This document shows, piece by piece, positions 1,264 to 28,110 of a DNA stretch of 61,427 nt. The DNA comes from a virus. Taxonomy: Duplodnaviria > Caudoviricetes. How positions within the stretch are numbered: position 1 is the stretch's first letter; the number at the start of each line of letters is the position of its first letter. The DNA is taken from IMG/VR virus record IMGVR_UViG_3300035670_000214, positions 1-61,427 of that record, one strand, 5' to 3'. The position numbers and the translations under genes are program-made. The notes under the pieces are model-generated. The model was given only the letters and a program-made list of their open reading frames with translations, did no database searches and was not told the DNA's origin.

Positions 1264-1439
1264 GTCTTTGGTTAAGCTTAAGCATAATTCTACCTGTACT
1301 AATCACCATGCTTAGCGTACTGGTATACATGCAGTTAAAGTTACGACGTGAACTGAAACTAGCTAAACAGAAGATGCGAGAAGGTACCTTAAAACGTAAT
1401 CATAAGAGACTATACCTTATAGACACGGAGCGTAAATAA
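1248..1439 (+). CDS. Small single-pass membrane protein
   Basis: Hydrophobic N-terminus and basic tail; fills the terL-portal gap and overlaps both genes. Confidence 0.55.
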   Translation: MDNTLSLWLSLSIILPVLITMLSVLVYMQLKLRRELKLAKQKMREGTLKRNHKRLYLIDTERK

Positions 1440-3554: not shown

Positions 3555-3995
3555 ATGAAACTACGTATACAGCGATTGCACCCAGATGCTAAGCTGCCTC
3601 TGCGAGCTACCCCAGGCGCTGCCGGTTATGACCTAACAGCGGTCAGCGTAAAGCACGACCCAGAATTACACACTTGGACCTACGACACAGGCTTAGCCTT
3701 TGAACTTCCTATGGGCTACGAGGGCCAACTGCGTCCTAGGTCTAGCATTTACAAGACTGGCGCAGTGTTGGCCAATTCTGTAGGTACGCTGGACAGTGAC
3801 TACCGAGGACCAGTCAAACTGGTATTTCTATCTCACCACCAACCATACCAGGTTGGCGAACGTATAGCTCAGCTCATCATTGCTAAAGTAGAGACAGCCA
3901 ATTTCGAGGTAGTGGACGACCTGTCTGCAACCGAGAGAAATCAGGGTGGATTTGGTTCTACTGGCAATGGGAGCTTAGGATATGGCAAACTATAA
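3555..3995 (+). CDS. dut: Trimeric dUTPase
   Basis: All five motifs present: AGYDL, RSS, GTLDSDYRG, RIAQL, RNQGGFGSTG. Confidence 0.97.
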   Translation: MKLRIQRLHPDAKLPLRATPGAAGYDLTAVSVKHDPELHTWTYDTGLAFELPMGYEGQLRPRSSIYKTGAVLANSVGTLDSDYRGPVKLVFLSHHQPYQVGERIAQLIIAKVETANFEVVDDLSATERNQGGFGSTGNGSLGYGKL

Positions 3996-4203
3996 CGACA
4001 AGTCTGAAAAGCCCAACTATAGTTCCGCTATGGAGATGGGCAAAGGTAAATATGGTGTTTACGTCACCTTTACCAAAGAGGAATTGGAGAAGATTCAAGC
4101 TCATTGCAACGGCATGCGGGTCAATCTGTCAAAGTGGATAAGCAACATGGTACGCGATGAGCTAATGTTAACCGACATCATGGATAAATCAAAGGACGTC
4201 TAA
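3982..4203 (+). CDS. Putative ribbon-helix-helix DNA-binding protein
   Basis: Strand GVYVTF followed by two helices (EELEKIQAHC / NLSKWISNMVRDEL). Confidence 0.55.
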   Translation: MANYNDKSEKPNYSSAMEMGKGKYGVYVTFTKEELEKIQAHCNGMRVNLSKWISNMVRDELMLTDIMDKSKDV

Positions 4204-7853: not shown

Positions 7854-7900
7854 CCCGAAAATCCCTTTCGGGTCCTGCTAATCGGGTCAAATATTGACCG
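7840..7900. repeat. Nested inverted repeat of TGACCCGA boxes (terminator or operator)
   Basis: TGACCCGA at 7840 and 7851; complements at 7866-7874 and 7882-7889; partial copy at 7895. Confidence 0.6.
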
Positions 7901-10732: not shown

Positions 10733-11872
10733 ATGGCAACCAGATATACCACCAATCTACGTTTGCGCATTGAGGATAACCTCACCGCAGACGCCATATA
10801 CAACCTTCAACGTATAGACGAACTGGGAGCTGTATTCAAGCTCTCGACCAGTAGCACAGTCGAACTATCCTCAGCTGAAGACGTGCTCATCCAACCAAAT
10901 AATCCAGCAGCAGGTGGCTCGGGCGTAGGCGGACTCGTTCGCGTAGGTTCATCGGGTCAACCAGCCGATGACATTAATCTATTCGCTAGTCGTGTCAACT
11001 TCTCCGCTCAGACTGTAGACTTCGGCAACGCAAATCTATTAGGCAACTTCACTATACCATGGGACAGGATTGACGCTAGCGGTGGCGGAAGTGTAGCTAA
11101 CTTTCCAGACTTTGAATCAGCCGTACTAGCCATACCAGCAGTATCAGCTAATACCTCTCACCCAAGCATTATCGGTAACCCACACCAGACTACCGCAGCT
11201 GACGTCGGAGCTTACAGCACGAGTCAAATTGACGCACTACTTGCAGCCAAAGCTAACCTTAGCCTATTAACGACCCACACTAGCGCAAGTACTGGAGTCC
11301 ACGGTATTACTGGTGCGGTTGTAGGTACAACTGATGCTCAGACTCTTAGCAATAAGTACCTAGACGCTGACAGCAACCAAATAGTCAACCTCAAGAATGC
11401 CAGCATAGCTGAGGGTGCTAACATCCACGGTTCTAAGATTAGACCGCTGTTCGGGAATCAACAGGTCCAGACCTCAGCAGGTCTACGCCTAGATGGCGCA
11501 TCCCAATACGTGGTTCTTCTACCGTCTGCTGCCGTCCAAGCTACACCCCTAAGCTTTCGCCTTCCTAGCTCTTATGGCTCGGCAGGCCAGGTGCTTGCCA
11601 CAGATGGCAACGGCAACCTTAGCTGGCAGAATACCGCCGGAGCTGCCATCAGCGAGGAAGTCTACCTCTGGCTTGATACCGATGGGGTACAGAAGACCGT
11701 CATCCATAACTTTAACAGTCAATCCCTCGACATTACCATTAGAGATACTACTGACAATGAATTAATCTACGTACCAGACATTAATTTCCTTGACAATAGT
11801 ACCCTAGTTCTGATAAGCTCTGAACCACCAAGCAATGCGTGGCAAGTAATAATACAAGGAGTAGCTAAATGA
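10733..11872 (+). CDS. Virion fibre or decoration protein 1
   Basis: VVGTTDAQTLSNK and GQVLATDGNGNLSW fibre motifs; C-terminal HNFN beta-domain. Confidence 0.7.
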   Translation: MATRYTTNLRLRIEDNLTADAIYNLQRIDELGAVFKLSTSSTVELSSAEDVLIQPNNPAAGGSGVGGLVRVGSSGQPADDINLFASRVNFSAQTVDFGNANLLGNFTIPWDRIDASGGGSVANFPDFESAVLAIPAVSANTSHPSIIGNPHQTTAADVGAYSTSQIDALLAAKANLSLLTTHTSASTGVHGITGAVVGTTDAQTLSNKYLDADSNQIVNLKNASIAEGANIHGSKIRPLFGNQQVQTSAGLRLDGASQYVVLLPSAAVQATPLSFRLPSSYGSAGQVLATDGNGNLSWQNTAGAAISEEVYLWLDTDGVQKTVIHNFNSQSLDITIRDTTDNELIYVPDINFLDNSTLVLISSEPPSNAWQVIIQGVAK

Positions 11873-13659
11873 AAATTTTCGGTAGTATCAGTAGGTTGGT
11901 GAGTATCATCTTCCGCAAAGACGGTCAAGATGTTACTTTCCGCCCAAATCAGTCAACCACTTACACAGCAGCCCGTGACATCCAGTTGCCAGTTGGCGAC
12001 GCTGACCATGAATTGGTTGGCAAGGCCGCTAGTCAGACGCTCACTAACAAGTCAATGTCTGGCGATGACAACACATTCTCAAACATTGGGATTAGCTCCC
12101 TTAAGACTGCTCTGTCTGACGCAGACAAGTTGCTACTTCGTGACGTATCCGGCGCAGTAGTATCTGCTAAGTTGGAAGACAAGCACGTTGCCGCTGGTGC
12201 AGCCATTGCCCTCAGCAAATTGGCAGCCCTCACAGCTAGCAAGGTACTTGTATCTGATGGCTCAGGCGTCATCAGCGCATCTAGCGTAACTAGCACTGAA
12301 CTCGGCTACCTCTCTGGTGTAACCTCTGGTATCCAAAGCCAATTGGACGCACTCTCTGCTTCTAGCTCTGGCGCTCTTTCAGACGCTATCGACGACATCC
12401 AAGCTGATATTGCGGCCCTCACCACTGACGACATCGAAGAGGGTTCTTCAAACCTGTACTTCACCGACGCTCGCGCTCAGGCAGCAGCTGTCGTTGACAC
12501 TGGCTACGCTGGAACCGAAACTAACAAGGCTCCTTCTGTCCGTGCAGTTGTTGCAGCTATCCAAGACGTAACTGACGCTATCGACAGCCTCCAATCTAGC
12601 CTGGAAGCTGCTGACGACGCTTTGGCCGCTGACATTGCTTCTGAGGCTTCTGCTCGTGCAGCTGCCGACAGTTCGCTTCAGACTGCCATCGACAATGAAG
12701 TGTCTGCTCGCCAATCTGCAGTTTCCAGCGAAGCTAGCACACGAGCCGCCGCTGACCTTTCTCTCCAAGCTGAAATTGACGCTGAAGAGATTGCACGTGC
12801 TGCAGCCGATGACGCTCTCGACGCTCGTTTGGACGTATTGGAAGGCGCAGACACAGTAGCTGGTTCAGTAGCCAAAGCGCTCAAAGATGCTAATGCTTAT
12901 ACTGATACTGAAATCTCTGCTCTTGAATCCTCAGTCAATAGTTCAGTTTCTGCCCTTGAATCTGCAGACGATGCAATTGAAGCTCGCCTCGACATCCTCG
13001 AAGGTTCAGCTGCAACTGTTGGTAGTGTTGCTAAAGCCGAAGCTGACGCTAAAGCTTACGCTGACCAAAAGATTGCTGACCTTATCGACGGCGCTCCTGC
13101 CCTCCTCGATACACTTAATGAATTGGCTGCTGCTATTGGCGACGACGAGAACTTCGTCACCACTATCACTACCAGCATCAGCAATGAAGCCTCGGCTAGA
13201 GCTAGTGCGGATACCACGCTCCAGAACAACATCAACGCCCTCGAGACTGCTCTCGAAGCCGCTGACTCTGACCTCCAGGACGCTATCGACGCTGAACAAG
13301 CTCGTGCCGAAGCTGCCGAAGCTACTCTCCAGTCGAACATCGACCTCAAGCTAAATAAGCCTAGCTCAGGTGACGCAGCGGATAAATACCTCCGTAGCAA
13401 TGGCGACGGTAGCACCTACTGGGACGTAGGCTACATTCTTCCAGTCTACAAAACTAACTGGGTTGCAGCCGCTGGTACAAGCAAGACTGTCTCCCACAAC
13501 CTCGGTTCAACGGACGTGGTCGTCAGTCTGGTGGACCTGAGCGATAACCAGGTTATCGGCGTAGATAGCATCGTCGTAACGGACAGCAACACAGTAACAC
13601 TCTCCTCCTCGGAGGCTCCTTCGGCTTCCGGCTGGAGAGTTATCGTTCAGAAAATCTAA
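11869..13659 (+). CDS. Coiled-coil fibre protein 2
   Basis: ExxARxxAD repeats; TTDDIEEGSSNLYFT; APALLDTLNELAAAIGDDENF; C-terminal HNLG domain. Confidence 0.8.
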   Translation: MKIFGSISRLVSIIFRKDGQDVTFRPNQSTTYTAARDIQLPVGDADHELVGKAASQTLTNKSMSGDDNTFSNIGISSLKTALSDADKLLLRDVSGAVVSAKLEDKHVAAGAAIALSKLAALTASKVLVSDGSGVISASSVTSTELGYLSGVTSGIQSQLDALSASSSGALSDAIDDIQADIAALTTDDIEEGSSNLYFTDARAQAAAVVDTGYAGTETNKAPSVRAVVAAIQDVTDAIDSLQSSLEAADDALAADIASEASARAAADSSLQTAIDNEVSARQSAVSSEASTRAAADLSLQAEIDAEEIARAAADDALDARLDVLEGADTVAGSVAKALKDANAYTDTEISALESSVNSSVSALESADDAIEARLDILEGSAATVGSVAKAEADAKAYADQKIADLIDGAPALLDTLNELAAAIGDDENFVTTITTSISNEASARASADTTLQNNINALETALEAADSDLQDAIDAEQARAEAAEATLQSNIDLKLNKPSSGDAADKYLRSNGDGSTYWDVGYILPVYKTNWVAAAGTSKTVSHNLGSTDVVVSLVDLSDNQVIGVDSIVVTDSNTVTLSSSEAPSASGWRVIVQKI

Positions 13660-14002: not shown

Positions 14003-17000
14003 ATGAAGATTTTTGGTAGTATCAGTGAATTGGTTGACTTAGCCTTTAGACTCGCTGGCGGGAAGCAAGTGAAGCTTCGCTCCGCTACCCAGACCACCGC
14101 AGGTAGCACAGTAACAGTAAACGTCCCGGACGTAGCAGCTACCGGTGACACGCAGAACATGATATTGACGAATGCTACTCAGACCTTAACTAATAAGACG
14201 CTGACTAGCCCAGTAGTTAGCGGTGGTACCATCAACAACTCCATCATCGGCGGGTCTACCCCAGCAGCTGGTACCTTCACTGACATCGTAGGTTCTACGC
14301 TCGATATCAATACTTCCGCCGAGTTACAGACACTTACTATTCCTAGCTTATCAACAGCTGGTGTATTGCACAATAACTCCTCAGGCGCAGTAAGTTCTTC
14401 CCTTGTCGTTAACGCCGACGTAGATGCTGCAGCAGCTATCGCATTTAGCAAATTGGCTACCCTCGCTTCCGGAAATATCCTCGTAGGCTCTAATACAGGC
14501 GTAGCTACCTCTCGTGCAGTCACTGGTGATGTAACCATCAGCGACCTTGGTGTTACCGCCATTGGCGCTAGCAAGGTCACCGATAGCATGCTAGCTGGTA
14601 ACATAGCTAGAACTAAGCTGGCTACTGGTAACAACTACCGCATACTTGCTAACGATTCCTCAGGTGCAGTGTCTGAGAACGCTGCTTTGACAGCTAACGA
14701 AGCAGTAGCTACCGATGCAAATGGCCAACTGGTATCAGTAACCGGCGTATCCGCTACTGAACTGGGTTACTTATCTGGCGTAACATCCGACGTCCAAACA
14801 CAAATAGATAGTAAGCAAGCAGCTGATGCTACCCTTACTGCTATTGCTGGTGTAACCACTGCCGCCGATAAGTATATCTACTTCGATGGTGTAGATAGCG
14901 CACAAGCAGCTACTATCACCTCATTTGCTCGCGGCCTTTTGGACGATACTAGTGCTACTATAGCCCAGAATACCCTGGGTTTGGGCTCTATGTCCACCCA
15001 GGCTGCCACCAGTGTTAATATTACCGGCGGCACCATACAGACAACTAACCTTCAGAATAACACCCTGAACGGCCATAAACTCGGTTCTGGTTCTGCAAGC
15101 ATTGCTAGCTCTACTCTAACTCCAGCATCTAATAAGTCACTTCAACTTATCGCTTCAGCAGCCAACTTCGGCATGATAGCCAGTCCAAGTGACGGACAGG
15201 AATATGTCCTCGTCAATGAATCTGCATCTGACATTACTATACAGAATCTTACAGGCGCTACTGCAGCTAACCAAATTTATACTGGTACTGGAGCAGATTT
15301 TACCTTTAAGGCTAAATCAGCCGTATCAGTAGTCTACGACGGTACACTTAGCAAGTGGATGTTGACTGGCGGCGGCGGTGGAGCTGGTGGACTTGCTACC
15401 ACCTACGTTACAGCTGGCGGCATCACTGCAGTCAAGAATACTCACTACCTTACGAATCTGGCTGCATCGGGCCAGACCATTACTCTCCCAGCTGGTGTTG
15501 ATGGCGACGTCATCCGCTTCTCTGACGCAGGTGAAGTCTGGGATGTATACCCACTTACCATCGCCCCAGCAAGTGGCGAGAAGATTGATAAGCTTGCGAT
15601 AGATGAGACGCTCGTATGTGACGTCAAGCGCGGCTGGGTTGAGCTCTCCTACAACAGCACCTTCGGCGGCTGGGCTTTCATGTCTCTGGCTTCCAGCTCT
15701 GGCAGTGCCTCTGGCTCTGGCGAGATTAATGCTGTGCTTAACGCCTCGGCAGCAGCTGACACTACTGGCTGGACGAATGCTACACGCGTAAGCTCTGGCT
15801 CACCTTTGGACCCAGTTGTCACTACAGCCCTCAGCATTTCAAATGTGGCAGCTTCCGAAGGCCCTACCTCAGGTGGCTACTACTCTATCGCAACAATGCC
15901 AGCTTCATTACGAAGCAGAAAACTTAAACTAGAATTCTACTATTCCACACCGGCTACAGATGTGTACAAGGTGTCGGTTTATGCCGGTTCAACCAGACTG
16001 TCCCTCAGCAGTGACAACTCAGGAGCTACAAGCCTACCAGCCAACGTAACAGGAGGCTTCTTCAGCGCATCCTTCGACGCTACTACAGCTTCGGCTTACA
16101 CACTGAACATCACCCGTACCTCCGGTACTACTGGCGCAATCACGGTTACGAATGTTGTCGTAGGCCCAGGCATCGTAGCTCAGGGTGCAGCTATTAGTGA
16201 GTGGCAGAGTTATACGCCTGCAAGTACGCAAGGTTTTGGTAATCCCACTGCTACGGTTTATAGATATAAACGTTCAGGTAGCTCAATAATTGTCTCCGTG
16301 AAATTTACCGCTGGCACGGTTACAACTGACGAAGCACGTATATCCCTCCCGTCCGGGCTCACGAGCGCAACCACAAATGCATTGACTATGGTGGGAGCGT
16401 ATGCAAGGGGTACAGGTACTACAGCATCGGCAAATCAAGTATATATTGAAAACGGTGCGGCTTACTTAACTTTTGGACGGGCAGATGGAACCTTAGCTGG
16501 ATATGCTAAGCGGCAAGGTAGTCAGCTTGTTTCCGCTGGTGAGGATTTTGGTTTTACTACTGCAGAAATCCCCATCGCTGAGTGGGCCGGAAATGGCACA
16601 GTCAATTTGGGACAAGGTGCTAACCTCGAATATGCCTTTAATAGCTCGGCTACCACCACGACGGACACGACGAGTTTTGGCTATGGTCCGACCGGCGCTG
16701 CTTTTGCTGCGTTTGCTCCAGGTGGAACAGCAAGTGTAGATAAACGAGTCAGGTTTCAGTATCCAATACAACAAGATGATGAATTGGTTGTCGAAGTGCA
16801 AGAAGCTGGTACTGGAACTTGGGTGCCCTTAATTTCCCGTTTAGGGGCTTTTTACAGCAACGCTGCAGGTACTACCTACTACGGGACTCAATTGATACGT
16901 GTATCTGGTAGCTCGACTGATGTTGATGTTGCATTCTACGCCGCAGCTCCATCTCAAGGAGCCTGGTCTTCATTAAGTACCTGGAAATGGCGAGTACGCA

Positions 17001-17494: not shown

Positions 17495-17665
17495 TCCGGT
17501 CCCGAAGGGGACCATCCCGTTACTTCTAGCGAAGTAACTTCTGACTTGACCTGGCACCTCAGCAGGTTTACAATCTGAGGTGTATTCTTTCTGTTTTAAC
17601 CACTTATGGCTAACCCGTTCCCGACAGGGAACCTGGTGGCCATACAACGAATAAGGAATAAACGC
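17495..17665 (+). promoter_or_regulatory. Structured leader C
   Basis: Hairpins GGTCCC/GGGACC, GTTACTTC/GAAGTAAC, CACCTCAG/CTGAGGTG, GTTCCC/GGGAAC; TATTCTTT can pair with the SD region AAGGAATA. Confidence 0.6.
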
Positions 17666-18544
17666 ATGGCCAACTTGTCTAGTAAAACAGGCACCATTAC
17701 CACGCCTGTCCAGACCCAGATATCACTATCCAACAATGCCACCACGTCAGTTCAAGACATGTCTGCTTACGATTCCCAGGAAGTAACTGGCTTCGTATAC
17801 GTGGATGCAACCAACGACCTCCGCTGCAGCTTTAGCGTAACCGTCGTCAAGAACGGCGCAGGCACTTACGAAGTTGCAGCAGTAGACCAATCTGGTGATA
17901 ACTATTCCTCAGCCCCGCTTCTCACGTTTAGCATGAGTAGCAGCACCCTCCGCGTAACTCTACCGAACGTAACAGGCTTCGCATCCGCCTACATGCGCTA
18001 CCAACTCTCGGCCCCTTACCTCGGGGGTAACTACCCACTGAGTGTATCGGCTAGTCAGGTTTTAGGAAATGCTGCAGGTACAGCACCAACTGCTGGCTAC
18101 ATTGGGGAAATTAAGAAAAGCACAGTGACAACGGCAACAAATATACCGGGTGCAACAGGTACTTTTGCTGACGCAGCAAATATATCTATTACGGCAGGTA
18201 TTTGGTTGGTATATGGAGCAGTCAGTATTGCGAGAAACTCGGCAACATTTAGTTCTACAGACATTGCATGTGGATTTAACACGACATCAGGAAACTCAGC
18301 AGCAGGTCTGAAGGAAGGTATAAATTATATAAACCCAGCAGCTTTAATAACCACAACGTTCACGAGGGTTGATTTGGTTTTGCCTCCAACACTTGTCAGG
18401 TGCGATGGAACCACTATTACTCGTGAAGAAGATAGTGTAGCGTTTGCTTCCGGAACCACTTTGTACCTCAAGCTTTATGTAGCAGCATTTAGTGCGGCAA
18501 CGCCACAATATACTGGAAAATTTGTAGCTATTCGCATAGCTTAA
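17666..18544 (+). CDS. Two-domain fibre or receptor-binding protein 4
   Basis: AAGGA RBS favours ATG 17666 over 17606; GTAPTAGYIGE junction motif, then a beta-rich C-domain ending AIRIA. Confidence 0.75.
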   Translation: MANLSSKTGTITTPVQTQISLSNNATTSVQDMSAYDSQEVTGFVYVDATNDLRCSFSVTVVKNGAGTYEVAAVDQSGDNYSSAPLLTFSMSSSTLRVTLPNVTGFASAYMRYQLSAPYLGGNYPLSVSASQVLGNAAGTAPTAGYIGEIKKSTVTTATNIPGATGTFADAANISITAGIWLVYGAVSIARNSATFSSTDIACGFNTTSGNSAAGLKEGINYINPAALITTTFTRVDLVLPPTLVRCDGTTITREEDSVAFASGTTLYLKLYVAAFSAATPQYTGKFVAIRIA

Positions 18545-18847
18545 CAAGTTGGACTCTATCGAGTCCACCAGGCTGACCGAAAGGTCAGCTGTCTCCCTCA
18601 AAAATGAATTGAACGATAAGGAAATGGGGGGGTTGCTAACAGCAACTGGACGTTTCCAACCAACAACAGATAAACAATCCACTCTGGCGGGTGTCCTTAA
18701 AAAGATGTGACTGTTGCCAATCCCACTAACGTGGTCCTGCAACTTCGCATTTACCCCCGCCAGAATCCGCCCTAACGGGCGTCCTATCAACAGATTCAAC
18801 AACCTTCATTAGAAAGGGTAAATGCGTGGCTACTAGATACATAAGGC
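18545..18847 (+). ncRNA. Pseudoknotted structured RNA D (family not recognised)
   Basis: Crossing helices 18683-90/18757-64 and 18746-56/18816-26; GAAA and UAAC-loop hairpins; long closing helix. Confidence 0.65.
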
Positions 18848-19267
18848 GTGAATAAGGTACAGAGCTCAAATGACGGGATAGCACCACCAGATGGATACAT
18901 TGGAGAAATAAAATCAGTATCTACAGCAACGGCTATTACTACTTCTAATTCAAATCTTGCAACCCTAACATTAACTCCTGGTACCTGGATTGTGACTGGC
19001 GGATATCGCTTCGGCGGAGATGCTGTAGCAAGATACTTGATAATCAGCCTTTCTACTACATCTGCGACAGCGGACACAGAGGCAGGAAGAACTGTAGTAG
19101 CGGATTATAATACAGTGGGTGGTGTTGTAGGAGCAACTACATTCTCTCGTACTTTTAGAGTCACCTCGGTAGCTTCTACCCAAACTATATATCTTGTCGG
19201 CCTTACTTCCAGTGTATCCGGAGCAGCATCATTTTATGGTTATATTGAAGCAGTTCGTATAGCTTAA
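18848..19267 (+). CDS. Orphan paralog of the C-terminal domain of fibre 4 (possibly a silent cassette)
   Basis: GIAPPDGYIGEIK ... TPGTWIV ... AVRIA mirrors 18050-18544; GTG start without a well-spaced RBS. Confidence 0.7.
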   Translation: MNKVQSSNDGIAPPDGYIGEIKSVSTATAITTSNSNLATLTLTPGTWIVTGGYRFGGDAVARYLIISLSTTSATADTEAGRTVVADYNTVGGVVGATTFSRTFRVTSVASTQTIYLVGLTSSVSGAASFYGYIEAVRIA

Positions 19268-19330
19268 CAATCCGGCAATCCTACCCCTTACGGGGTAGTC
19301 CGGGCCATCGACTTGCCAGGGAGGCTAATT

Positions 19331-19992: not shown

Positions 19993-20991
19993 ATGGCTAG
20001 GTCACTTACTACCCGCCAGTTGATTGCTGCCGTCCGCTCTCTCATTGACGAGCAGAACGAAGCAGAGATTAACGATACTATTGACATACTACCATCCCTT
20101 AACCGGGGATTCGATGACGCCATCGACATTCTAGCACGGCGCTACCCTGATGCCCTTATAACCAACCGCACTGTCTCCTTAAGCGAGGGCGATGAGGGTC
20201 TATTCCCCATCCCGGAAGATGCCTTTCAAGAGCGCTTAGAGAAGGTAGAAGCTAGCATCAATGGCTACTACACCGAGATTCAAAGGATAGACTACCGGGA
20301 CATTACCTACTACGATGTACCCCAGAACTCGGGTTCACCCTTCTACTACGCAGTCATAGGTTCAGATTATAAATTGGTCCCTCCGCCTTCAGGTATTGAT
20401 GGCCTTCGCATCTGGTATATACCAGAAGTAGGGCCACTCGTCGAGGAGTACGGGCGCATAACTGTGATAGGTACCGACAATTCGCTACCTACGGCAAGGT
20501 CGTACGTCAGATTGACCGACGTAACTGACCCTGACCAAGTTAGTCAAGATATAAGCTCCTTGTCTAGCTTCGTTAACCTCATCGACCACAGAACTGGTCG
20601 GATAAAGGCTACCCTCCAGATTGCTAGTATCTCAGGACCTAAGGTAATATTCAGTGCTAGTCCTAATAGGGCAGTTGTTCAGGGCCGCACTGTCAGTACT
20701 TCGCTTCCAGCAGGTACTGAGCTGGATGACTACCTCTGTCCGGTTGACGGTACTTGCATACCTCCTATGCGCTCTCCTTTGACCAACTTCCTCATTACCT
20801 ATAGTTCAGCCGAACTGAAAGCACTGAAGCTGGACGGCGACCCTAACGTGGTACTAGCTCAGCTTAAAAAATTCGAGGAGCGAATAGAGAAGACCTGGGT
20901 AAGAAGAGAGCAGTCTCAGCGAGTTTACCGAGCATCCAAGAACTGGGGTCCACGTACCAATAACCTCTGGGTGCGTACTCCGCGAACATAA
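19993..20991 (+). CDS. Head-tail adaptor (tail tubular protein A-like)
   Basis: LIAAVRSLIDE...LNRG...FPIPED...GSPFYYAV...LVPPP...IWY pattern; lies upstream of the nozzle gene. Confidence 0.7.
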   Translation: MARSLTTRQLIAAVRSLIDEQNEAEINDTIDILPSLNRGFDDAIDILARRYPDALITNRTVSLSEGDEGLFPIPEDAFQERLEKVEASINGYYTEIQRIDYRDITYYDVPQNSGSPFYYAVIGSDYKLVPPPSGIDGLRIWYIPEVGPLVEEYGRITVIGTDNSLPTARSYVRLTDVTDPDQVSQDISSLSSFVNLIDHRTGRIKATLQIASISGPKVIFSASPNRAVVQGRTVSTSLPAGTELDDYLCPVDGTCIPPMRSPLTNFLITYSSAELKALKLDGDPNVVLAQLKKFEERIEKTWVRREQSQRVYRASKNWGPRTNNLWVRTPRT

Positions 20992-20999
20992 GGCATACC

Positions 21000-21152
21000 A
21001 TGGCTACTACTAAAGAAGCAATAGCTAAGCTAAAGGACCAGGGTCCCTGCTGGAAGAACTACGAGCAGGTAGGGATGAAGCCGACCAAAAAAGGTAAGAT
21101 GGTGCCTAATTGCGTTCCTAAGAAGAAAAAGAAGGAAGGCGAAAATAAATGA
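21000..21152 (+). CDS. 50-aa basic protein with the CWxxY...MVPNCVP motif (absent from the ORF track)
   Basis: MATTKEAIAKLKDQGPCWKNYEQVGMKPTKKGKMVPNCVPKKKKKEGENK; motif familiar from small phage proteins. Confidence 0.75.
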   Translation: MATTKEAIAKLKDQGPCWKNYEQVGMKPTKKGKMVPNCVPKKKKKEGENK

Positions 21153-21200
21153 TGGCAGTCACAATCCCTGCGGTCACAGTGTCTGTGAAGGAGCCTGAAT

Positions 21201-21467
21201 ATGGCAGTCACTAAGAAGGCAGTATCAAGCCTAAAAGATAAGATGCCCTGCAATAAACCTAGACGGGCTAATGACGGTAAGCACGACTACGTAGTCAAGG
21301 CTTGCCAGGATGGTGAAGAGCGGATAGTCCGTTACGGCGATTCCAGTATGCCTAACCACCCAGATGACCCTGAACGTAGAGCGAACTTCCGAGCTCGACA
21401 TAACTGCGACGAGAAGAAAGATAAGTTCTCGGCTGGCTACTGGGCGTGTAGGAAACCAGCATGGTAA
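21201..21467 (+). CDS. DUF6321-like small basic protein
   Basis: IVRYGD...PERRANFRARHNC...KFSAGYWAC. Confidence 0.75.
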   Translation: MAVTKKAVSSLKDKMPCNKPRRANDGKHDYVVKACQDGEERIVRYGDSSMPNHPDDPERRANFRARHNCDEKKDKFSAGYWACRKPAW

Positions 21468-21520
21468 CTAACGAAGACGATTGGAAGATATTACAGATAG
21501 CATATACAGGGAGAGTAAAG

Positions 21521-21700
21521 ATGCCACTAGCTAAAGGTTACAGCCAAAAGTCAATCAGTAAGAATATCAGTAAGCTCAAAGAAGAAGGCTATGATGCCAA
21601 AGGTGGCAAACAAGCCGTAGCCATCGCCATGCAAACAGCTTGCAAGTCCTGTCGCAAAGCAGGCAAAGGCAAGTGTGAGATGTGTCAGAAGAAGGGTTAG
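21521..21700 (+). CDS. Small basic phage protein of the MPLxKG...KQAVAIA type
   Basis: MPLAKGYSQKSISKNISKLKEEG...KQAVAIAM plus two CxxC; GGAG RBS before ATG 21521. Confidence 0.7.
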   Translation: MPLAKGYSQKSISKNISKLKEEGYDAKGGKQAVAIAMQTACKSCRKAGKGKCEMCQKKG

Positions 21701-21733
21701 GCGTGCGTCATATTGACGTAGCAGGAGTAATAG

Positions 21734-21808
21734 ATGGCGACTAGATATCAGGATGTTAGGGTTGCCATAGGCAACTTGGATATATCGCCAACAGACAGGA
21801 TTAACTAA
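21734..21808 (+). CDS. Mini-ORF 1, MATRYQDVRVAIGNLDISPTDRIN
   Basis: AGGAG RBS; first 20 nt identical to the start of the 21883 gene. Confidence 0.45.
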   Translation: MATRYQDVRVAIGNLDISPTDRIN

Positions 21809-21810
21809 CT

Positions 21811-21873
21811 ATGGCTACGCGCTATCAAGACAAGTTGAGCTTACAGCTCACCACGATGTCCTTGCTGATATAG
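21811..21873 (+). CDS. Mini-ORF 2, MATRYQDKLSLQLTTMSLLI
   Basis: AGGA upstream; same heptapeptide encoded with synonymous codons. Confidence 0.45.
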   Translation: MATRYQDKLSLQLTTMSLLI

Positions 21874-21882
21874 GAGTTCTAA

Positions 21883-24800
21883 ATGGCGACTAGATATCAG
21901 GACATCTCCTACGGTAGCTTCGGTGGTGGTATAGACCAGCTCTCACCCGAGAGCAAGATACCGGATGACTTCGTAGAGCTTTTAGACAATGTAGACCCTA
22001 CGCCTAACGGCTCGCTAGTTAAGCGTACTGGTACCCAGCTATTCGGCTCGGTACCTGTTCGCGTTGAGCGTATAGAGTACATCCGTGTCGGCAGTCCTGG
22101 AGATTACTCCGGTGAGCTCTGCTTTTTCCTCGATACTAGCGTGGACGTTATCAGTCTTCGCTCTACCCCCATTTACGTCTACGGTAGAACCAGCGAGGGC
22201 CAAGCAGCTGGCGATTTCACCAGCGTTAGCTCCGGTAAGTACTACCCTAAATTTACAACTGACGTCCGGCAATCAGTACTTGAATCGGATGGTATAAGCG
22301 AGCAAACTACTACCATACTGCTAGAAGGTAATACCCACGACCAAGGTTCCCTTCTAGCCTTCGGCCTCTTCCAGAGTATTAGTAGCACTAACCTCGGTAA
22401 CCAGGTAATAGTACCTACCAGCGTTAAGGTAGATAAGCTAAGTGCCGACGTTACCGCCGAAGTAACTACTGGCTTGACTAGCGATGAATCGACCGTAATA
22501 TTTGATACCTTCGCCGTCGCCAAGTCAAGAGCATTCGACCCAGGTACCTCTTACGTCTACACCGCTAGCTTAGCTACAGCTGCTAGCTTTCCTAACCCAG
22601 TCACAGTTAGTATAGCAGCTGGTACCCATAACCTTACCAGCTTTAACATCCTGGCTGATTGCTACCTAGACAATGGTACCGAATACGAGCGTATAGTACC
22701 GGATAGCTACGTGATTACCCCGGCTGGTTCTGTTGAACTATCCTTTAGCTACTATCAGAATTTTAACCTAGTAGCCTGCCTCTACGCTGCACCCAGCAGT
22801 CAATCTAAGATGCAGCTTGTGGAGTCGGGCGAGATAAATGAAACTATAATAGTAGATTACCCAGATACTCCTTTCCTATTCTATCAGCTATTTGCCGAGC
22901 AGCTCGATGGTTCTCGCGTAGCCTTCTACGGTAGCGCCAATTTGGATACGGTAAACGCAGCAGCCGCTAGCGCCGTACTCGACGTAAGACTACTTCCAGG
23001 TGCAACCTCTGACTATCGTTCCACCTTTTACGTCACTAACCAATCTGGTACCGACCTTACTACCTTAACAGTTTGGGATTACGGAAGATTGGTTTCCAAC
23101 AAACTATGCGTAGAAGCAAGCGACCCTGTAATCGACACATTTGCAATAAGCATACCAGGTAGTGAGCATAAATTGGGGGAATTCGTAGCTACCACATTGC
23201 TACAATCCACTAACCCTACTAACCAGAATAACCTACTTATCCAGTATGACGAGGCTAGTACAGCAGTAGTAGACGACACCGTCACCATCAATCTGGCAAA
23301 TAATACCACCAGCCAATTTACTGCCTATGCCATTTTGGCCGATAGGTCTATAATGAGCGGAGCCTATCACCACCCGGCTACACTAGTTGCCGGAGGGACT
23401 ACTCAAACTATTAGCATACCAGCTAGTACGCATAACAAGGGTGCTGATGTAAACCTAAGCCTATTTAGAGTGGTACCGGGAACTGGAGCTACTACTAGCT
23501 ACGAGGAATTACCAGTAACCGATTTAACGATTAGTAGCACAGGCAATATCACCTTATTGGTAGAGAATACCGGAACTAGTGAATACTACGTAATACCGGT
23601 AGTATATTCCGTCACGAATACAGCCACTTCAGGTAGTATAGCTAGTGGAACTACCGGCACACTTAGTATCAGTAGCCTTACCAATCCATTTGCTTTCATC
23701 CATGTCTACCAGATATCTGGCACAGATAGAATACGTATAACCCCAGACCGCGTCTCTGTCAATAGCATTCTCGGAACTGGCAGTATTCAGGTGACTAATA
23801 ATACCGGTTCTGCCCTGACGTATAAAGCATTGTGGGACTACGCCGACTATACCAGCGAAGAGGTGGTTCCTATCACGTCTAGCAGTGGTACTGGTTATAG
23901 GGATAATAACCCGCAGATGACTATCTGGGGTTTACCTCACCGACAGTTGTACTCAGGTGCTACTGGCTCGACTCCAGGCTACGTAACTCACGTAGACGTC
24001 TATAGAGCGCAGGCAGAGGAAAGACCAGTCTGTGGACTTGGCGGAAACCTCTACAATGCTATAGACTTTAGCGAGGCTCCGGCTAGTTACGGTATGGGAG
24101 AATACTATCCTAACCTTAGAGCTAGGGTAGATACGCCAGTTGTAGTAGGCCCTGCTTTCATCAATACCACAGATAGCGATACTAGCCGAACTCAAGGTGT
24201 TATTCGTTTCACTACTGCTGGCAACAATTTGGCTGCCATCGTTCGCTCCGTCTACCAGCAAGGGACTGAAGCGTATCCTGATTATTCCTCTAGCTCCACC
24301 TACACTACCGGAGCTATCGTTAGATTTAACGCTAGCTACTACCAGGCGCTTATGAGTGTACCTGCAGGTCAGGCACCTAGCAATACTGCTTACTGGGAGG
24401 AGGTATTTGAGGGGCATGTAACCTATCGCCTTTACGTACCTAATCTAACTGTGATAGGCTCACTGTCACAAATATTCAATAGCAGCGAATTTCTCACCGT
24501 TAGCGGTATGGGTTACTCCATTAATAATGGTGAATTTAACGTTATAAGTGCAGCCCTGGTACCTAGCAGCGATTACCTGGACGTCACCGTCTATAACCCT
24601 GAGCTCGATACCGCTGACTGGAATGAAGCTAGTTCAGACGGAAGAGCTGGTATCTTCACTGACCGCATTCCTCTGGAAGTGACCTGCCCATTCTTCGAGA
24701 ACGATAGATTACTGTCAGCAAGCTGGGGCGAGGAGCAATTGTTAACCGTTACCGGCACTTCAGCTGGTAATGAAGTCCGCATGGATGGACTCTACGAGAA

Positions 24801-27800
24801 TGTAAGTATACCTGATGGTCTTCTCCTCGTCGGCTCTAGAACCAGCCGTATCATACCTCTCCGCTCGCTTAACGCTATACCTACTACCCAGAATCTGGTA
24901 GCAGGCGATATTCTTAGCTTCACTAACCTCAGCCGTGAGCTTAGAGCTAAATTCGTGAATCCACGGGCAGATGAGGTCGTTAGCATTTCCAGCAACCTCA
25001 GCTATACCTTGGACGACAATCCACCTGTCCGCGTCAATGTGGCCGATTCCAACCTATTCCAGGTAGGCCAGCGTATACTATTACTTAACGCTGGTCAGTT
25101 CACTGGCGAGCAGTTGATAGAAGAGATTATCAGCCCAACTCAGGTTCAACTAGTAGTTAAAGCTTATACCCCAGCACTGGGGGGATGTGTAATTTTTGGC
25201 TATAACGTCGAGGTAGACGAGGATTTTCCTTGGTTCGACAGCTTGACCTCTACCATCAGTTTCACGGTAACCAGACGCTGGTGGCCTATCGAGGAGCCAG
25301 ACAACGACTACCTGCAGTTACCTCCTAATAGGTACCGCTACTTCAACAGTGCTGCGTACGACAACCAGCCATTCCTCCGCTCTACCATGGTACAGGATAC
25401 CATGTATCTGACCAATGGTCTGGATGCGGTACAGCGCTACGACGGCCAGAACCTGACTAGGGCTGGTCTCTTCCGTTGGCAGGCAGGTCTATACCTAACA
25501 CTAGATACTACGACGGTAGGTAAGGTAGTACCTAATACCTATCAAATAGATAACGCTAAAATTGGCTCAGTTGGTAGTAACTTCTTTAACGTAGATAAGT
25601 ACCTTGATAAACACTTCGCTATTGGAGATGTTATACGTTATACCAATGTTACTAGCGGAGTTACGGTAACGCGAGACCTTACTATCACCAAAACCTGGGA
25701 AGGAAACACTGAATCTGTTATAGAAGTAGACACAGATGGTGTAGCCCTGCTAACTAGTGGTACTAAGACGCTTAATAAGGTAAGTACGTACTCCTATTAC
25801 TATCGCCTTAATATGATAGATGTTAATGGAAATATTATAGCTAGTGCCGTTACCAACGCACAAGATGCTAGGATAGATATAGCCCAAGCCGCTGCTATCA
25901 AGCACTTGCTTGTCCGGCCTCCGTTCCTAGATAACTTTGACTTCGCTCGTATCGAGATACAGGTGTACAGAACCAAGGCAAACTTAACTGGACCTTATTA
26001 CCTAGTAGCTACATTGCAGCCTAACTGGAATATCGGTGGCGAAGCCTACCTTGAGTTCACTGACACAGCTGCGGATAACACTCTCGCTAGCACCAACCTT
26101 GACCCAGTTAACGCCACACTCTTAGGGCAAGAATTGGGCCAGACTTGGTCAGGTCCTTTACGTAGTAAGTATCTAACTTCCAATTCCAATAGCCTTGTAC
26201 TAGCCAACTTCCGTAGCTGGCCTAGCCTAAGTCTGCGTCCTCAACGCCTAGCCGAGATAGAGAAGACGGAGTTAGCCGACTACGCAGGCCGTAAGCTATT
26301 AATACTAAAGGATAGTACTGACATTGGGCTTACTACCGATAACCTGAATAGGATGCAATTTGAGTTCCTCTCATCCGGTGCCCATACCATAAGTCTGTCT
26401 GGTGCAGCTATAGACTATGACACTAACGAATTGACTATAACTAATGCAAGTCATGGACTGGTTGAGGGTAACTGGATATATCTGTTCTTTACTAATAGCG
26501 GGCCAACTTCCATTGACCCACGAGTAGGCGGGCACTACCAGGTTAGTTCGGTAGTGGATACTAATAGCTTCCGTATCCAACTGTCCAACACCTTACTTGA
26601 TAGTATCAATACTTACCCACTTAACGGGCAGGACGTCAATCGTTACGTCCACGCTACTAATGCAAATGACGTGCCAGTCTGGATAGGTTCTGACCTATTA
26701 TATAGCACTAAAGCTGGTCTAAAGCAAGCCTCCGTTGACCCTAGCACCTTTGTATTCCTGCGACTTGCCAACGCTATCAATAGTGCGCAAGCTGCTTGTA
26801 ACACTCAAGATTTCGTTCCTTGGATGGTAGCTAACGCTGGTGGCGAGTGGCGAGATAATCGTATAGTAATCGAGACACCTTACGTCACTGATAGCAGGCT
26901 AGCAGCTATACTTCCTAGCTTTGATAACCTCATCATCTACGCTAACGAGCTTAGAGTTAACGCTGGCTCAACCGTACTTGCTGAAGTTCAGGTCTTCCCT
27001 AGCCGTATACTGGTGAGCTACCCTAACTATCCAGAAATATTTGATGCACCTTTAGCCTTCCTAGACACAGATAGTGAATCAGCTATCGACATCAATCCTT
27101 CAGATGGTCAAGAGATAACAGGGGTTATACCGTTCTTTGGCGAGTCGGCTTTCGGAGCTGCGCAAAAGGATAGTATCCTTCTGGTATTTAAGACTGCTTC
27201 CGTCTACCTAGTCAATATTGCGGCCAAGAGGGCAGGCCAGCCTTGCGTACAGCGCCTCGATACCAGAGGCCTTGGTTGTACCGCGCCGTATTCGATAGCA
27301 CCTACCCAGAACGGTATAATGTTCGCTAACCAATCTGGTATCTACCGTATTACCACTAACCTCCAGTGTCAGTACATCGGTCGCCGTGTAGAGCGTATCT
27401 GGAAGGAAGAAGTAGACCTTAACCAGCTAGACTTACAACTACACGGACACTATTACCCGCTGGGGCACCAGTACAAGCTGTCTGTTCCCTATCGGGATGA
27501 TGAGAGGGATTACTCCCAGCGCGTACTGGTCTACAACACCGTTCGGGAATACACGGCTGACGGGTACAGGGACGGTAGCTGGACTTCCTACTCTAATCTA
27601 CCAGCTATCGGCTGGGCTAACATGCTAAGACAACCACTGTTTGCAACCCCTAACGGAGAGGTATTTACTCTCCGCATGACTGGGGATAGCACAGACTACC
27701 GTGACGATGGCTCGCCTATCGAGGCTGTAGCTACCTTACGGGCTATGGACTTTGGCTCGGCTAGTATAAGGAAAGCGGTGGCTAGCTTTAACATGCAATT

Positions 27801-28110
27801 CCGACCAGAAGATAAGGATAGCGAGGTAGTCGTGGAGGCATCCATCGACCTCATCGACAACTGGGAGACCTTGGACCAAGCCGTGGTCAGTAAGCAACGG
27901 GTGGTCGGCAACATTAATAACAGGGCTACCCAAGACTTAGCAGTGATACAGTACATGAGCAATAAGCGCAAGGGTGTTTACTATCAGTTACGGGTAAGTA
28001 ACGGGAAGCTGGACCAGGGTATGCAGCTTAATGGAGCTAGCATGATGGTAGCAGGACTCGGGTCCGAGGGTATCATACAGGCTAAAGAGACAGGTACTGG
28101 TCGAAGCTAG
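21883..28110 (+). CDS. Giant tail nozzle / stabilisation protein (tubular B or P22 gp10-like) with large insertions
   Basis: N-terminal FGGGID...DNVDPTPNGSLVKRTG and C-terminal GCTAPYSI...GIMFANQSGIYR...VLVYN propeller motifs; 2075 aa. Confidence 0.75.
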   Translation: MATRYQDISYGSFGGGIDQLSPESKIPDDFVELLDNVDPTPNGSLVKRTGTQLFGSVPVRVERIEYIRVGSPGDYSGELCFFLDTSVDVISLRSTPIYVYGRTSEGQAAGDFTSVSSGKYYPKFTTDVRQSVLESDGISEQTTTILLEGNTHDQGSLLAFGLFQSISSTNLGNQVIVPTSVKVDKLSADVTAEVTTGLTSDESTVIFDTFAVAKSRAFDPGTSYVYTASLATAASFPNPVTVSIAAGTHNLTSFNILADCYLDNGTEYERIVPDSYVITPAGSVELSFSYYQNFNLVACLYAAPSSQSKMQLVESGEINETIIVDYPDTPFLFYQLFAEQLDGSRVAFYGSANLDTVNAAAASAVLDVRLLPGATSDYRSTFYVTNQSGTDLTTLTVWDYGRLVSNKLCVEASDPVIDTFAISIPGSEHKLGEFVATTLLQSTNPTNQNNLLIQYDEASTAVVDDTVTINLANNTTSQFTAYAILADRSIMSGAYHHPATLVAGGTTQTISIPASTHNKGADVNLSLFRVVPGTGATTSYEELPVTDLTISSTGNITLLVENTGTSEYYVIPVVYSVTNTATSGSIASGTTGTLSISSLTNPFAFIHVYQISGTDRIRITPDRVSVNSILGTGSIQVTNNTGSALTYKALWDYADYTSEEVVPITSSSGTGYRDNNPQMTIWGLPHRQLYSGATGSTPGYVTHVDVYRAQAEERPVCGLGGNLYNAIDFSEAPASYGMGEYYPNLRARVDTPVVVGPAFINTTDSDTSRTQGVIRFTTAGNNLAAIVRSVYQQGTEAYPDYSSSSTYTTGAIVRFNASYYQALMSVPAGQAPSNTAYWEEVFEGHVTYRLYVPNLTVIGSLSQIFNSSEFLTVSGMGYSINNGEFNVISAALVPSSDYLDVTVYNPELDTADWNEASSDGRAGIFTDRIPLEVTCPFFENDRLLSASWGEEQLLTVTGTSAGNEVRMDGLYENVSIPDGLLLVGSRTSRIIPLRSLNAIPTTQNLVAGDILSFTNLSRELRAKFVNPRADEVVSISSNLSYTLDDNPPVRVNVADSNLFQVGQRILLLNAGQFTGEQLIEEIISPTQVQLVVKAYTPALGGCVIFGYNVEVDEDFPWFDSLTSTISFTVTRRWWPIEEPDNDYLQLPPNRYRYFNSAAYDNQPFLRSTMVQDTMYLTNGLDAVQRYDGQNLTRAGLFRWQAGLYLTLDTTTVGKVVPNTYQIDNAKIGSVGSNFFNVDKYLDKHFAIGDVIRYTNVTSGVTVTRDLTITKTWEGNTESVIEVDTDGVALLTSGTKTLNKVSTYSYYYRLNMIDVNGNIIASAVTNAQDARIDIAQAAAIKHLLVRPPFLDNFDFARIEIQVYRTKANLTGPYYLVATLQPNWNIGGEAYLEFTDTAADNTLASTNLDPVNATLLGQELGQTWSGPLRSKYLTSNSNSLVLANFRSWPSLSLRPQRLAEIEKTELADYAGRKLLILKDSTDIGLTTDNLNRMQFEFLSSGAHTISLSGAAIDYDTNELTITNASHGLVEGNWIYLFFTNSGPTSIDPRVGGHYQVSSVVDTNSFRIQLSNTLLDSINTYPLNGQDVNRYVHATNANDVPVWIGSDLLYSTKAGLKQASVDPSTFVFLRLANAINSAQAACNTQDFVPWMVANAGGEWRDNRIVIETPYVTDSRLAAILPSFDNLIIYANELRVNAGSTVLAEVQVFPSRILVSYPNYPEIFDAPLAFLDTDSESAIDINPSDGQEITGVIPFFGESAFGAAQKDSILLVFKTASVYLVNIAAKRAGQPCVQRLDTRGLGCTAPYSIAPTQNGIMFANQSGIYRITTNLQCQYIGRRVERIWKEEVDLNQLDLQLHGHYYPLGHQYKLSVPYRDDERDYSQRVLVYNTVREYTADGYRDGSWTSYSNLPAIGWANMLRQPLFATPNGEVFTLRMTGDSTDYRDDGSPIEAVATLRAMDFGSASIRKAVASFNMQFRPEDKDSEVVVEASIDLIDNWETLDQAVVSKQRVVGNINNRATQDLAVIQYMSNKRKGVYYQLRVSNGKLDQGMQLNGASMMVAGLGSEGIIQAKETGTGRS

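Follow-up and report, generated by a model that had tools for sequence, protein, structure and literature searches.

The window analysed in this study is the whole stretch of 61427 bases in IMG/VR record IMGVR_UViG_3300035670_000214, a complete podophage genome with 127-base direct terminal repeats. Three consecutive starts encoding MATRYQD were found downstream of its adaptor gene, at positions 21734, 21811 and 21883. The last of them opens a nozzle (tail hub) gene of 2075 amino acids (aa), whereas the first two open micro-ORFs (open reading frames, ORFs) of 24 and 20 aa, termed u1 and u2. Both the three starts and the AGGA(G) ahead of each of them had been reported in a first-pass annotation made from the letters of the sequence, and they were borne out at these positions with the sequence as reported. 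A degenerate pattern for M-A-T-R-Y-Q-D, with the Asp codon represented by two nucleotides (nt), has three matches in the 61427 bases, all on the + strand, and none in 100 shuffles. The coordinates of the annotated features are collected in Table 1.

Table 1. Annotated features of the window (1-based positions)
Feature	Position	Strand	Details
Micro-ORF u1	21734..21808	+	24 aa, MATRYQDVRVAIGNLDISPTDRIN; first 20 nt are those of the nozzle start
Micro-ORF u2	21811..21873	+	20 aa, MATRYQDKLSLQLTTMSLLI; orthologue in relative L004 at 5930-5998
Shine-Dalgarno site of u1	21723..21727	+	AGGAG, 6 nt 5' of ATG
Shine-Dalgarno site of u2	21797..21800	+	AGGA, weak, 10 nt 5' of ATG
Shine-Dalgarno site of nozzle gene	21872..21876	+	AGGAG, 6 nt 5' of ATG
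Hairpin H0	21701..21722	+	Stem 21704-21710/21714-21720, loop TAT (RNAfold); sequence identical in relative L012
Hairpin H1	21761..21775	+	GTTGCC-ATA-GGCAAC, inside u1; begins 6 nt past codon 7
Hairpin H2	21836..21850	+	TGAGCT-TAC-AGCTCA, inside u2
5' arm of possible 8-bp helix	21855..21862	+	GATGTCCT; pairs with nozzle codons 6-8
3' arm of possible helix	21899..21906	+	AGGACATC; nozzle codons 6-8
Start-copy micro-ORF u0	21152..21214	+	MAVTIPAVTVSVKEPEYGSH; precedes gene 21201-21467
Nozzle (tail hub) gene	21883..28110	+	2075 aa; model of last 520 aa matches podophage nozzle chains
Adaptor gene, SU10-like	19993..20991	+	Pfam SU10_adaptor, 31 bits (cut-off 27)
Portal gene, P22-like	1439-3463		P22-like
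Fibre-like gene	10733..11872	+	N-terminus MATRYTT

Anatomy of the repeated start

Each unit of the leader has the same order, namely a Shine-Dalgarno site, an ATG plus seven codons, a hairpin, and a tail that enters the next Shine-Dalgarno site. The TAA stop of u1 (21806-21808) lies 2 nt ahead of the u2 ATG, and the TAG stop of u2 (21871-21873) overlaps the Shine-Dalgarno site of the nozzle gene, 9 nt ahead of its ATG. Copy 1 and the nozzle start have 28 of 31 bases in common in the arrangement AGGAGT-N5-ATGGCGACTAGATATCAGGA (repeat D10), and their 20 coding bases are identical, as the first-pass annotation had pointed out. Its observation that copy 2 keeps the heptapeptide through four synonymous codon changes was likewise reproduced, with five base differences from the nozzle start falling in four codons.

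The hairpin of u1 is followed by GGATATATCGCC. In the relative L004 the hairpin is flanked by two copies of ACCAGGAT and then followed by ATCCTCG, which resembles ATCTCG of nozzle codons 8-9. The tails 3' of the hairpins resemble nozzle codons 8-17 only weakly. The clear likeness ends at codon 7 because a hairpin was seemingly inserted there. From the sequence we infer that the micro-ORFs are decayed partial tandem copies of the nozzle 5' end, comprising its ribosome-binding site (RBS) and first seven codons.

Two other explanations of the repeats were rejected. An assembly artefact is ruled out by exact contigs from other samples of the same study, where a contig of run X3 spans 21244-21870 (copies 1 and 2) and a contig of run X4 spans 21824-22005 (copies 2 and 3), each with 0 differences, and by the independent assembly of L004. 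Iterons or another DNA-binding site are ruled out by differences between the copies that follow a three-base period. A promoter and terminator scan of 21000-22000 returned no promoter-like site and no terminator-like or T-run terminator site on the + strand.

Distribution among relatives

Four members of the MATRYQD clade were obtained from public viral and metagenome contigs, along with about 35 nozzle relatives that are more distant. Four of the 40 loci (L023, L029, L049 and L050) were left out because the contig did not reach the nozzle start or the start was unclear, and the 38 rows examined consist of 36 loci together with L012 and the window, some of them near-duplicates. In three of the 38 rows, those of the window, the L004 contig and L042, an ORF upstream of the nozzle gene copies its N-terminus. 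The nozzle N-terminus itself, MATRYQDISYG, is identical in all four clade members despite an overall identity of 46%.

Of the two micro-ORFs, L004 (69% aa identity over the nozzle) carries the second alone, MATRYQDKLTFQVTRISSPVRR, which ends 2 nt before the nozzle ATG. L012, the closest relative (99% aa identity over the first 130 nozzle residues, ~86% at the nt level), has no MATRYQD micro-ORF and keeps H0 and H1 in an 89-nt leader. In the strain of run X5 (~90% nt identity), position 21696 is joined to 21871 via 26 other bases and both micro-ORFs are missing. The gap is 17 nt in L006/L015 (46% aa identity), and L006 is without a MATRYQD micro-ORF. Copy 2 thus recurs in one distant relative, L004. 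L012, the X5 strain and L006, all of them closer or intermediate relatives, do without the MATRYQD micro-ORFs, which are therefore, on this comparison of genomes, dispensable and patchy.

The adaptor-nozzle spacer is a different allele in every relative. The gap from the upstream ORF to the nozzle gene is at most 17 nt in 22 of the 34 relatives that have an upstream ORF (by crude ORF calling, the L042 row being a spurious ORF); the gap between the upstream gene and the nozzle gene in the window is 182 nt. The neighbourhood further upstream is mosaic when window positions 21000-21467 are compared with L012 1159-1620 and L004 5237-5647. Here, a 50-aa gene is identical to that of L012 at 50 of 50 residues and has the same base at 17 of 18 four-fold sites. 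The L012 homologue of an 88-aa gene is identical over 22 aa and then diverged, which marks a mosaic breakpoint, and the window copy of this gene is 92% identical to that of L004.

Conservation of the leader

Between the window and L004, the leader is identical in 54 of 72 columns (75%; hand count), whereas four-fold sites are identical at 237 of 633 positions (37%) for the nozzle gene and at 41 of 114 for the adaptor gene. In this pair of sequences, the u2 leader is far more conserved than neutral sites, which are saturated.

The differences within u2 are distributed unevenly. Codons 1-9 contain four differences, all of them synonymous and at third positions, whereas codons 10-19 contain seven non-synonymous and no synonymous differences. 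Four changes among 24 sites would all fall on the eight third positions with a probability of 70/10626 (p ~0.007 by our own arithmetic). The head MATRYQDKL is hence conserved at the amino acid level, and the earlier suggestion of selection on the heptapeptide gains support from this pattern. Codons 3-4 of u2 (ACG CGC) are common to the window and L004 and unlike both real nozzle starts, so gene conversion has not swept these two codons. At codons 5 and 7, on the other hand, the synonymous codon used in u2 is that of the genome's own nozzle start in the window and L004 alike. The copied codons were found to have no non-synonymous change in any case examined. A count of exact 10-mer start repeats over 739 kb gave no clear enrichment, with 13 at the start and 2-16 at control offsets, several of them being contig-edge artefacts.

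The same design at other genes

A third micro-ORF of the window, u0, has an ATG that overlaps the TGA stop of the 50-aa gene (21000-21152), and its first 11 nt are those of the start of the gene that it precedes. It holds a hairpin (21174-21188) and a Shine-Dalgarno site, GAAGGAG (21187-21193). L012 has it too, with three third-position differences between its four copied codons and the real start, and it is missing from L004 and the X5 strain.

In L018, a 15-codon ORF (2924-2971) sits on the TAA stop of a 78-aa gene and copies the MAWI of the following 262-aa gene. Its orthologue in L019 (2959-3006) is identical at 41 of 48 bases, compared with 35-36% identity at four-fold sites. At residue 4, micro-ORF and main gene agree within each genome, with Ile in L018 and Val in L019, where two different Val codons are used, and this paired change could reflect gene conversion or a shared constraint. 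The main gene of L019 seemingly starts at TTG. In L042, a 16-codon ORF bridges the adaptor and nozzle genes, with TGATG at the adaptor stop and TAATG at the nozzle start, and it copies MAAT(T)FSLI via synonymous changes with one residue of the nozzle head missing. The design of u0 and L018 precedes two genes that are unrelated and do not encode a nozzle, and only four residues are copied in them.

A related arrangement occurs in L051, where a truncated and strongly diverged copy (27 aa, 3839-3922) of a holin-like gene (3983-4195), with its own Shine-Dalgarno site, is located 144 nt upstream of the full gene. The origin of the spacers was sought by searching the window and 41 loci with five spacers and the combined u1-u2 leader (short-word blastn), and only orthologues were matched, namely u0 of L012 and, for the L018 spacer, that of L019.

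Hairpins and RNA folding

Hairpins with stems of 6-7 bp and 3-base loops occur across the micro-ORF units, and H0 lies directly 3' of the TAG stop (21698-21700) of an upstream 79-aa gene. The stems are kept in all four orthologous pairs, either through compensatory changes (u1 and u2) or with changes in the loop only (u0 and L018/L019). H1 of L012 reads GGTTAACC-ATA-GGTTAAC, in which both arms are changed and pairing is kept, and H2 of L004 reads TGACCT-TTC-AGGTCA with one compensatory swap from G-C to C-G. Neither H1 nor H2 contains a Shine-Dalgarno site or a start codon. A possible 8-bp helix between the tail of u2 and nozzle codons 6-8 would be formed in L004 by GATATCCT and AGGATATC with one compensatory pair, and H2 and this helix pair fully in the window as well as in L004.

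Perfect hairpins with a 6-bp stem and a 3-nt loop number 34 genome-wide compared with 13.9 in shuffles (maximum 21), an enrichment of about 2.4 times. Three of the 34 sit inside u0, u1 and u2. Several others are intergenic, for example those at 7885, 13692 and 18632. Rfam covariance models gave no match in 20500-22500 at E up to 1.

A possible relay of ribosomes to the nozzle gene

Given the observed anatomy, conservation pattern and patchy distribution, we read the micro-ORFs as accessory leader ORFs that arose by duplication of the nozzle start and, through termination-reinitiation, hand ribosomes on to the nozzle gene, a reading to which we assign a probability of about one half. They are most likely not building blocks of the virion. 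A ribosome would load at the strong site 5' of u1, read its 24 codons and stop 2 nt ahead of the u2 ATG. It would then restart on u2, read 20 codons and stop within the nozzle Shine-Dalgarno site, 9 nt before the nozzle ATG, where a second restart would lead into the nozzle gene, so that the chain would bridge the 182-nt gap. A bridging ORF from the old start to the new one would in this manner keep ribosomes on the message. Such a device would be accessory, because close relatives do without it. Among the three roles proposed in the first-pass annotation, that of leader peptides fits best, each micro-ORF having its own RBS and ending 2 or 9 nt before the next start.

Every start-copy ORF was found to have a usable start, which is AGGAG for u1, AGGA and a position 2 nt past the u1 stop for u2, and TGATG or TAATG for u0, L018 and L042. 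The stops also end close to the main ATG in the five independent start-copy ORFs (u0, u1, u2, L018 and L042), at +14, -2, -9, -4 and +1. Shuffled spacers place a stop within -16 to +20 nt of the main ATG with probabilities of 0.76, 0.17, 0.16, 0.125 and 0.34, the product of which is ~9e-4 (our own arithmetic, with the stop window picked after the data had been seen). Termination-reinitiation is reported to be nearly lost at gaps of ~20 nt (PMC10666635).

From these features we infer that u1 and u2 are translated, that the nozzle gene is coupled to them, and that the peptide constraint has its reason in the relay itself: the first residues would be held at the amino acid level because, to act as a relay, a short ORF must get through early elongation without aborting. 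Protein yield is reported to be affected by the amino acids of codons 3-5 (PMC6920384, Verma et al. 2019), an effect which may be a reason for a peptide-level constraint that is limited to the head.

Several observations weigh against the relay. L012, the X5 strain and L006 manage the same nozzle gene without MATRYQD micro-ORFs, and the 89-nt gap of L012 is left unbridged. At 33 nt, the gap between the upstream stop and u1 exceeds what reinitiation allows, which means that the chain has to be started by fresh initiation, and the nozzle gene has a strong Shine-Dalgarno site of its own. The relay gives the hairpins no role. Folding adds little to it: the covariation of H2 and the helix, from two sequences, lacks significance (it is matched in 115 of 500 shuffles), the fold of the leader as a whole is no better than that of shuffles (z of -0.99 and -0.29), and the mean unpaired probability of the nozzle start is 0.41-0.57 with micro-ORFs versus 0.45-0.61 without them. 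The start in the window, at 0.44, is not hidden more than in leaderless relatives. The divergence of u0 from L012 (four synonymous and two non-synonymous differences in 49 nt) is no less than that of the near-identical flanks. Each selection test is made on one sequence pair, and synonymous-only differences are favoured because the cases were partly found by peptide identity.

If the relay is true, phages could rebuild translational coupling after an insertion by retaining the old start as a short bridging ORF, with a new RBS and a copy of the first codons, and would possess a simple and recurrent means of tuning the amount of one virion part against another, here the adaptor against the nozzle. 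Gene callers miss such ORFs because they are only 15-24 codons long. The micro-ORFs would also show, in a natural setting, whether selection for ribosome passage acts on the first amino acids of an ORF.

Alternative explanations

It is conceivable, although we consider it rather unlikely, that the micro-ORFs are neutral scars, that is, roleless 5' fragments left by unequal or illegitimate exchange at an adaptor-nozzle recombination or indel hot spot, with their likeness to the nozzle start renewed by gene conversion. The spacer allele that differs in every relative, the patchiness and the mosaic breakpoint in the adjoining 88-aa gene of L012 agree with such a history, and so do the base identity of copy 1 to the real start and the match of u2 codons 5 and 7 to the own nozzle start in the window and L004. 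The joint change of residue 4 (I to V) in micro-ORF and main gene of L018/L019 and the truncated holin-like copy of L051 can be read in the same way. However, a 72-nt leader that is twice as often identical as the four-fold sites (75% versus 37%) is unexpected if neutral, and the L018/L019 spacer stands out from its four-fold sites in the same manner. ACG CGC, common to both u2 sequences and unlike the real starts, argues against scars, as do the lack of non-synonymous change in the copied codons, frames that are open up to the next start, and the hairpin stems that were kept. Direct repeats so close to each other should also be readily lost unless retained. Should scars nevertheless be the true explanation, the finding would still map a recombination hot spot between the adaptor and nozzle genes.

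An RNA element, in which the hairpins and the helix between 21855-21862 and codons 6-8 would act on the mRNA (through stability, processing, pausing or a site for an RNA-binding protein) with the ORFs being incidental, is an unlikely explanation. It would draw on the stems kept in all four orthologous pairs, on the genome-wide enrichment of small hairpins with three of them in micro-ORFs, and on L012, which retains H0 and H1 without any MATRYQD start. It leaves the third-position-only differences of codons 1-9 and the open frames unaccounted for. The Rfam search without a match, the overall fold that is no better than shuffles, and the hairpins being free of Shine-Dalgarno sites and start codons also speak against it.

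The first-pass annotation had favoured peptides that fill spare sites for the nozzle N-arm on the adaptor. In this explanation, which we regard as improbable, peptides of 20-24 aa would be made and their MATRYQD head would occupy or compete for the adaptor site of the N-arm, or otherwise modulate tail assembly, and selection on the peptide itself and not on translation would keep the first 7-9 residues. The amino acid conservation of MATRYQDKL between the window and L004 fits this view. The identity of MATRYQDISYG in all four clade members has also been counted for it, and against an overall identity of 46% this means that the head matters for the nozzle itself. A further point in its favour is that gene 10733 begins with MATRY, which we confirmed (MATRYTT); its first 15 bases agree with the nozzle start at 13 of 15 positions. 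Its homologues elsewhere begin with MATTL, MAFTL or MSLST, and in three other genomes the fibre homologue does not have the N-terminus of its own nozzle, so the MATRY common to gene 10733 and the nozzle is specific to this genome and the fibre and nozzle N-termini do not co-vary. The MATRY at 10733-10747 may be a short conversion tract. The filling of spare sites therefore found no support, given that L012, the X5 strain and L006, among them the closest relatives, have no MATRYQD micro-ORF, the tail of the peptide is free to change (seven of ten codons non-synonymous), the same design with only four copied residues precedes two unrelated, non-nozzle genes, and the L042 copy is short of one residue of the nozzle head.

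In the bypass of T4 gene 60, the take-off codon has a stop directly behind it and is matched by the landing codon. A similar hop, in which ribosomes would leave Asp-7, pass over the hairpin to Asp-7 of the next copy and make authentic nozzle protein, is highly improbable: although the likeness ends exactly at codon 7 with the hairpin next, GAT and GAC are both Asp codons, and a GGAT or ACCAGGAT repeat follows the hairpin, the take-off codon is followed by a sense codon (GTT in u1, AAG in u2) and the bypass fails because no stop stands there, u0 and L042 are mismatched codon for codon (their Thr codons differ or one residue is missing), and the nozzle has its own start. The two systems are alike in having matched codons that flank a hairpin-holding gap and a Shine-Dalgarno-like site before the landing point; they are unlike in the missing stop after the take-off codon and in the downstream ORF with its own start.

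Relation to known systems

Leader ORFs and translational coupling are already well known. Huber et al. have reportedly described translational coupling through termination-reinitiation where stop and start codons overlap or abut. The relay is similar in that each stop overlaps the next start or is only a few nt away from it (TGATG/TAATG in L042, u0 and L018; 2 and 9 nt between stop and start for the window's u1 and u2) and in that the genes encode parts of one complex, the adaptor and the nozzle. It differs in that the middle ORF is not a gene but a copy of the downstream start with 15-24 codons, in that two such ORFs are chained, and in that the coupling is a predicted one.

In the leader-peptide attenuation of erm and cat genes, the hairpin that sequesters the main RBS opens when a ribosome stalls on the leader. 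Both there and here, the leader ORF is short, has a conserved head with a conserved hairpin immediately behind it, and lies upstream of the main RBS. The hairpins here (21761-21775 and 21836-21850) exclude the main Shine-Dalgarno site and ATG, so sequestration of the RBS as in erm or cat does not apply. There is also no evident inducer, and the leader copies the N-terminus of the main protein.

The PeSLs of T4-type phages are described as sigma-70 promoters combined with terminators (Arbiol et al. 2010, PMC2839356). As far as that description goes, both they and the present units are small repeated stem-loop cassettes in variable regions that mark sites of indel or replacement among close relatives. 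The repeated part in our case is an RBS with the first codons, and neither a promoter nor a T-run terminator was found with it on the + strand. The short translational ramp (PMC6920384) offers a further parallel, as the amino acids of the first few codons are reported there to set ribosome passage, which would explain a constraint on the first 4-9 codons. That report concerns the yield of full-length protein, and its extension to relay ORFs is our own suggestion. Word searches of the open-access literature did not find a leader in which the start of the main gene itself is copied, which carries a conserved small hairpin and which recurs at several genes in one phage family.

The nozzle gene and other genes of the window

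Pfam, PHROG and PDB sequence searches with the 2075-aa protein gave no match, and it belongs to none of their curated families by these searches. A structure model of its last 520 residues, built with 31 aligned relatives as input, has a pLDDT of 74. Foldseek matched this model to nozzle or tail-hub chains with E-values from 3.5e-11 to 1e-4 and TM-scores of only ~0.3, the matches being to VP1 (E 3.5e-11) and SU10 (E 2.4e-10) and also to Pa223, P22 gp10 and T7 gp12. Because the modelled C-terminus matches known nozzle and tail-hub chains, nozzle or tail hub protein appears to be a fair name for the product. Neither blastn nor tblastn matched the window to an isolate phage. Several fibre-like genes are also encoded by the genome, and the opposite strand carries genes for a DNA polymerase, a helicase and a RuvC-like resolvase.

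Some minor observations were made elsewhere in the window. The ribonucleotide reductase gene (4203-7037) has weak matches to intein splicing domains at 28.7 bits, below the Pfam cut-off of 35.8, and a match to a LAGLIDADG endonuclease domain at 28.6 bits (cut-off 22.5), at about residues 359-624. Two tail-fibre-like genes are 84% identical over their first 32 bases (11869-11900 and 14003-14034) and begin with MKIFGSIS..., and their homologue in the L042 genome begins with MKVFGSISRLV. The genes 17606-18544 and 18848-19267 carry at their 3' ends a stretch of 26 bases that is 85% identical (18522-18547 and 19245-19270). A fibre gene of L051 ends similarly to these two genes, with ...AVRIA.

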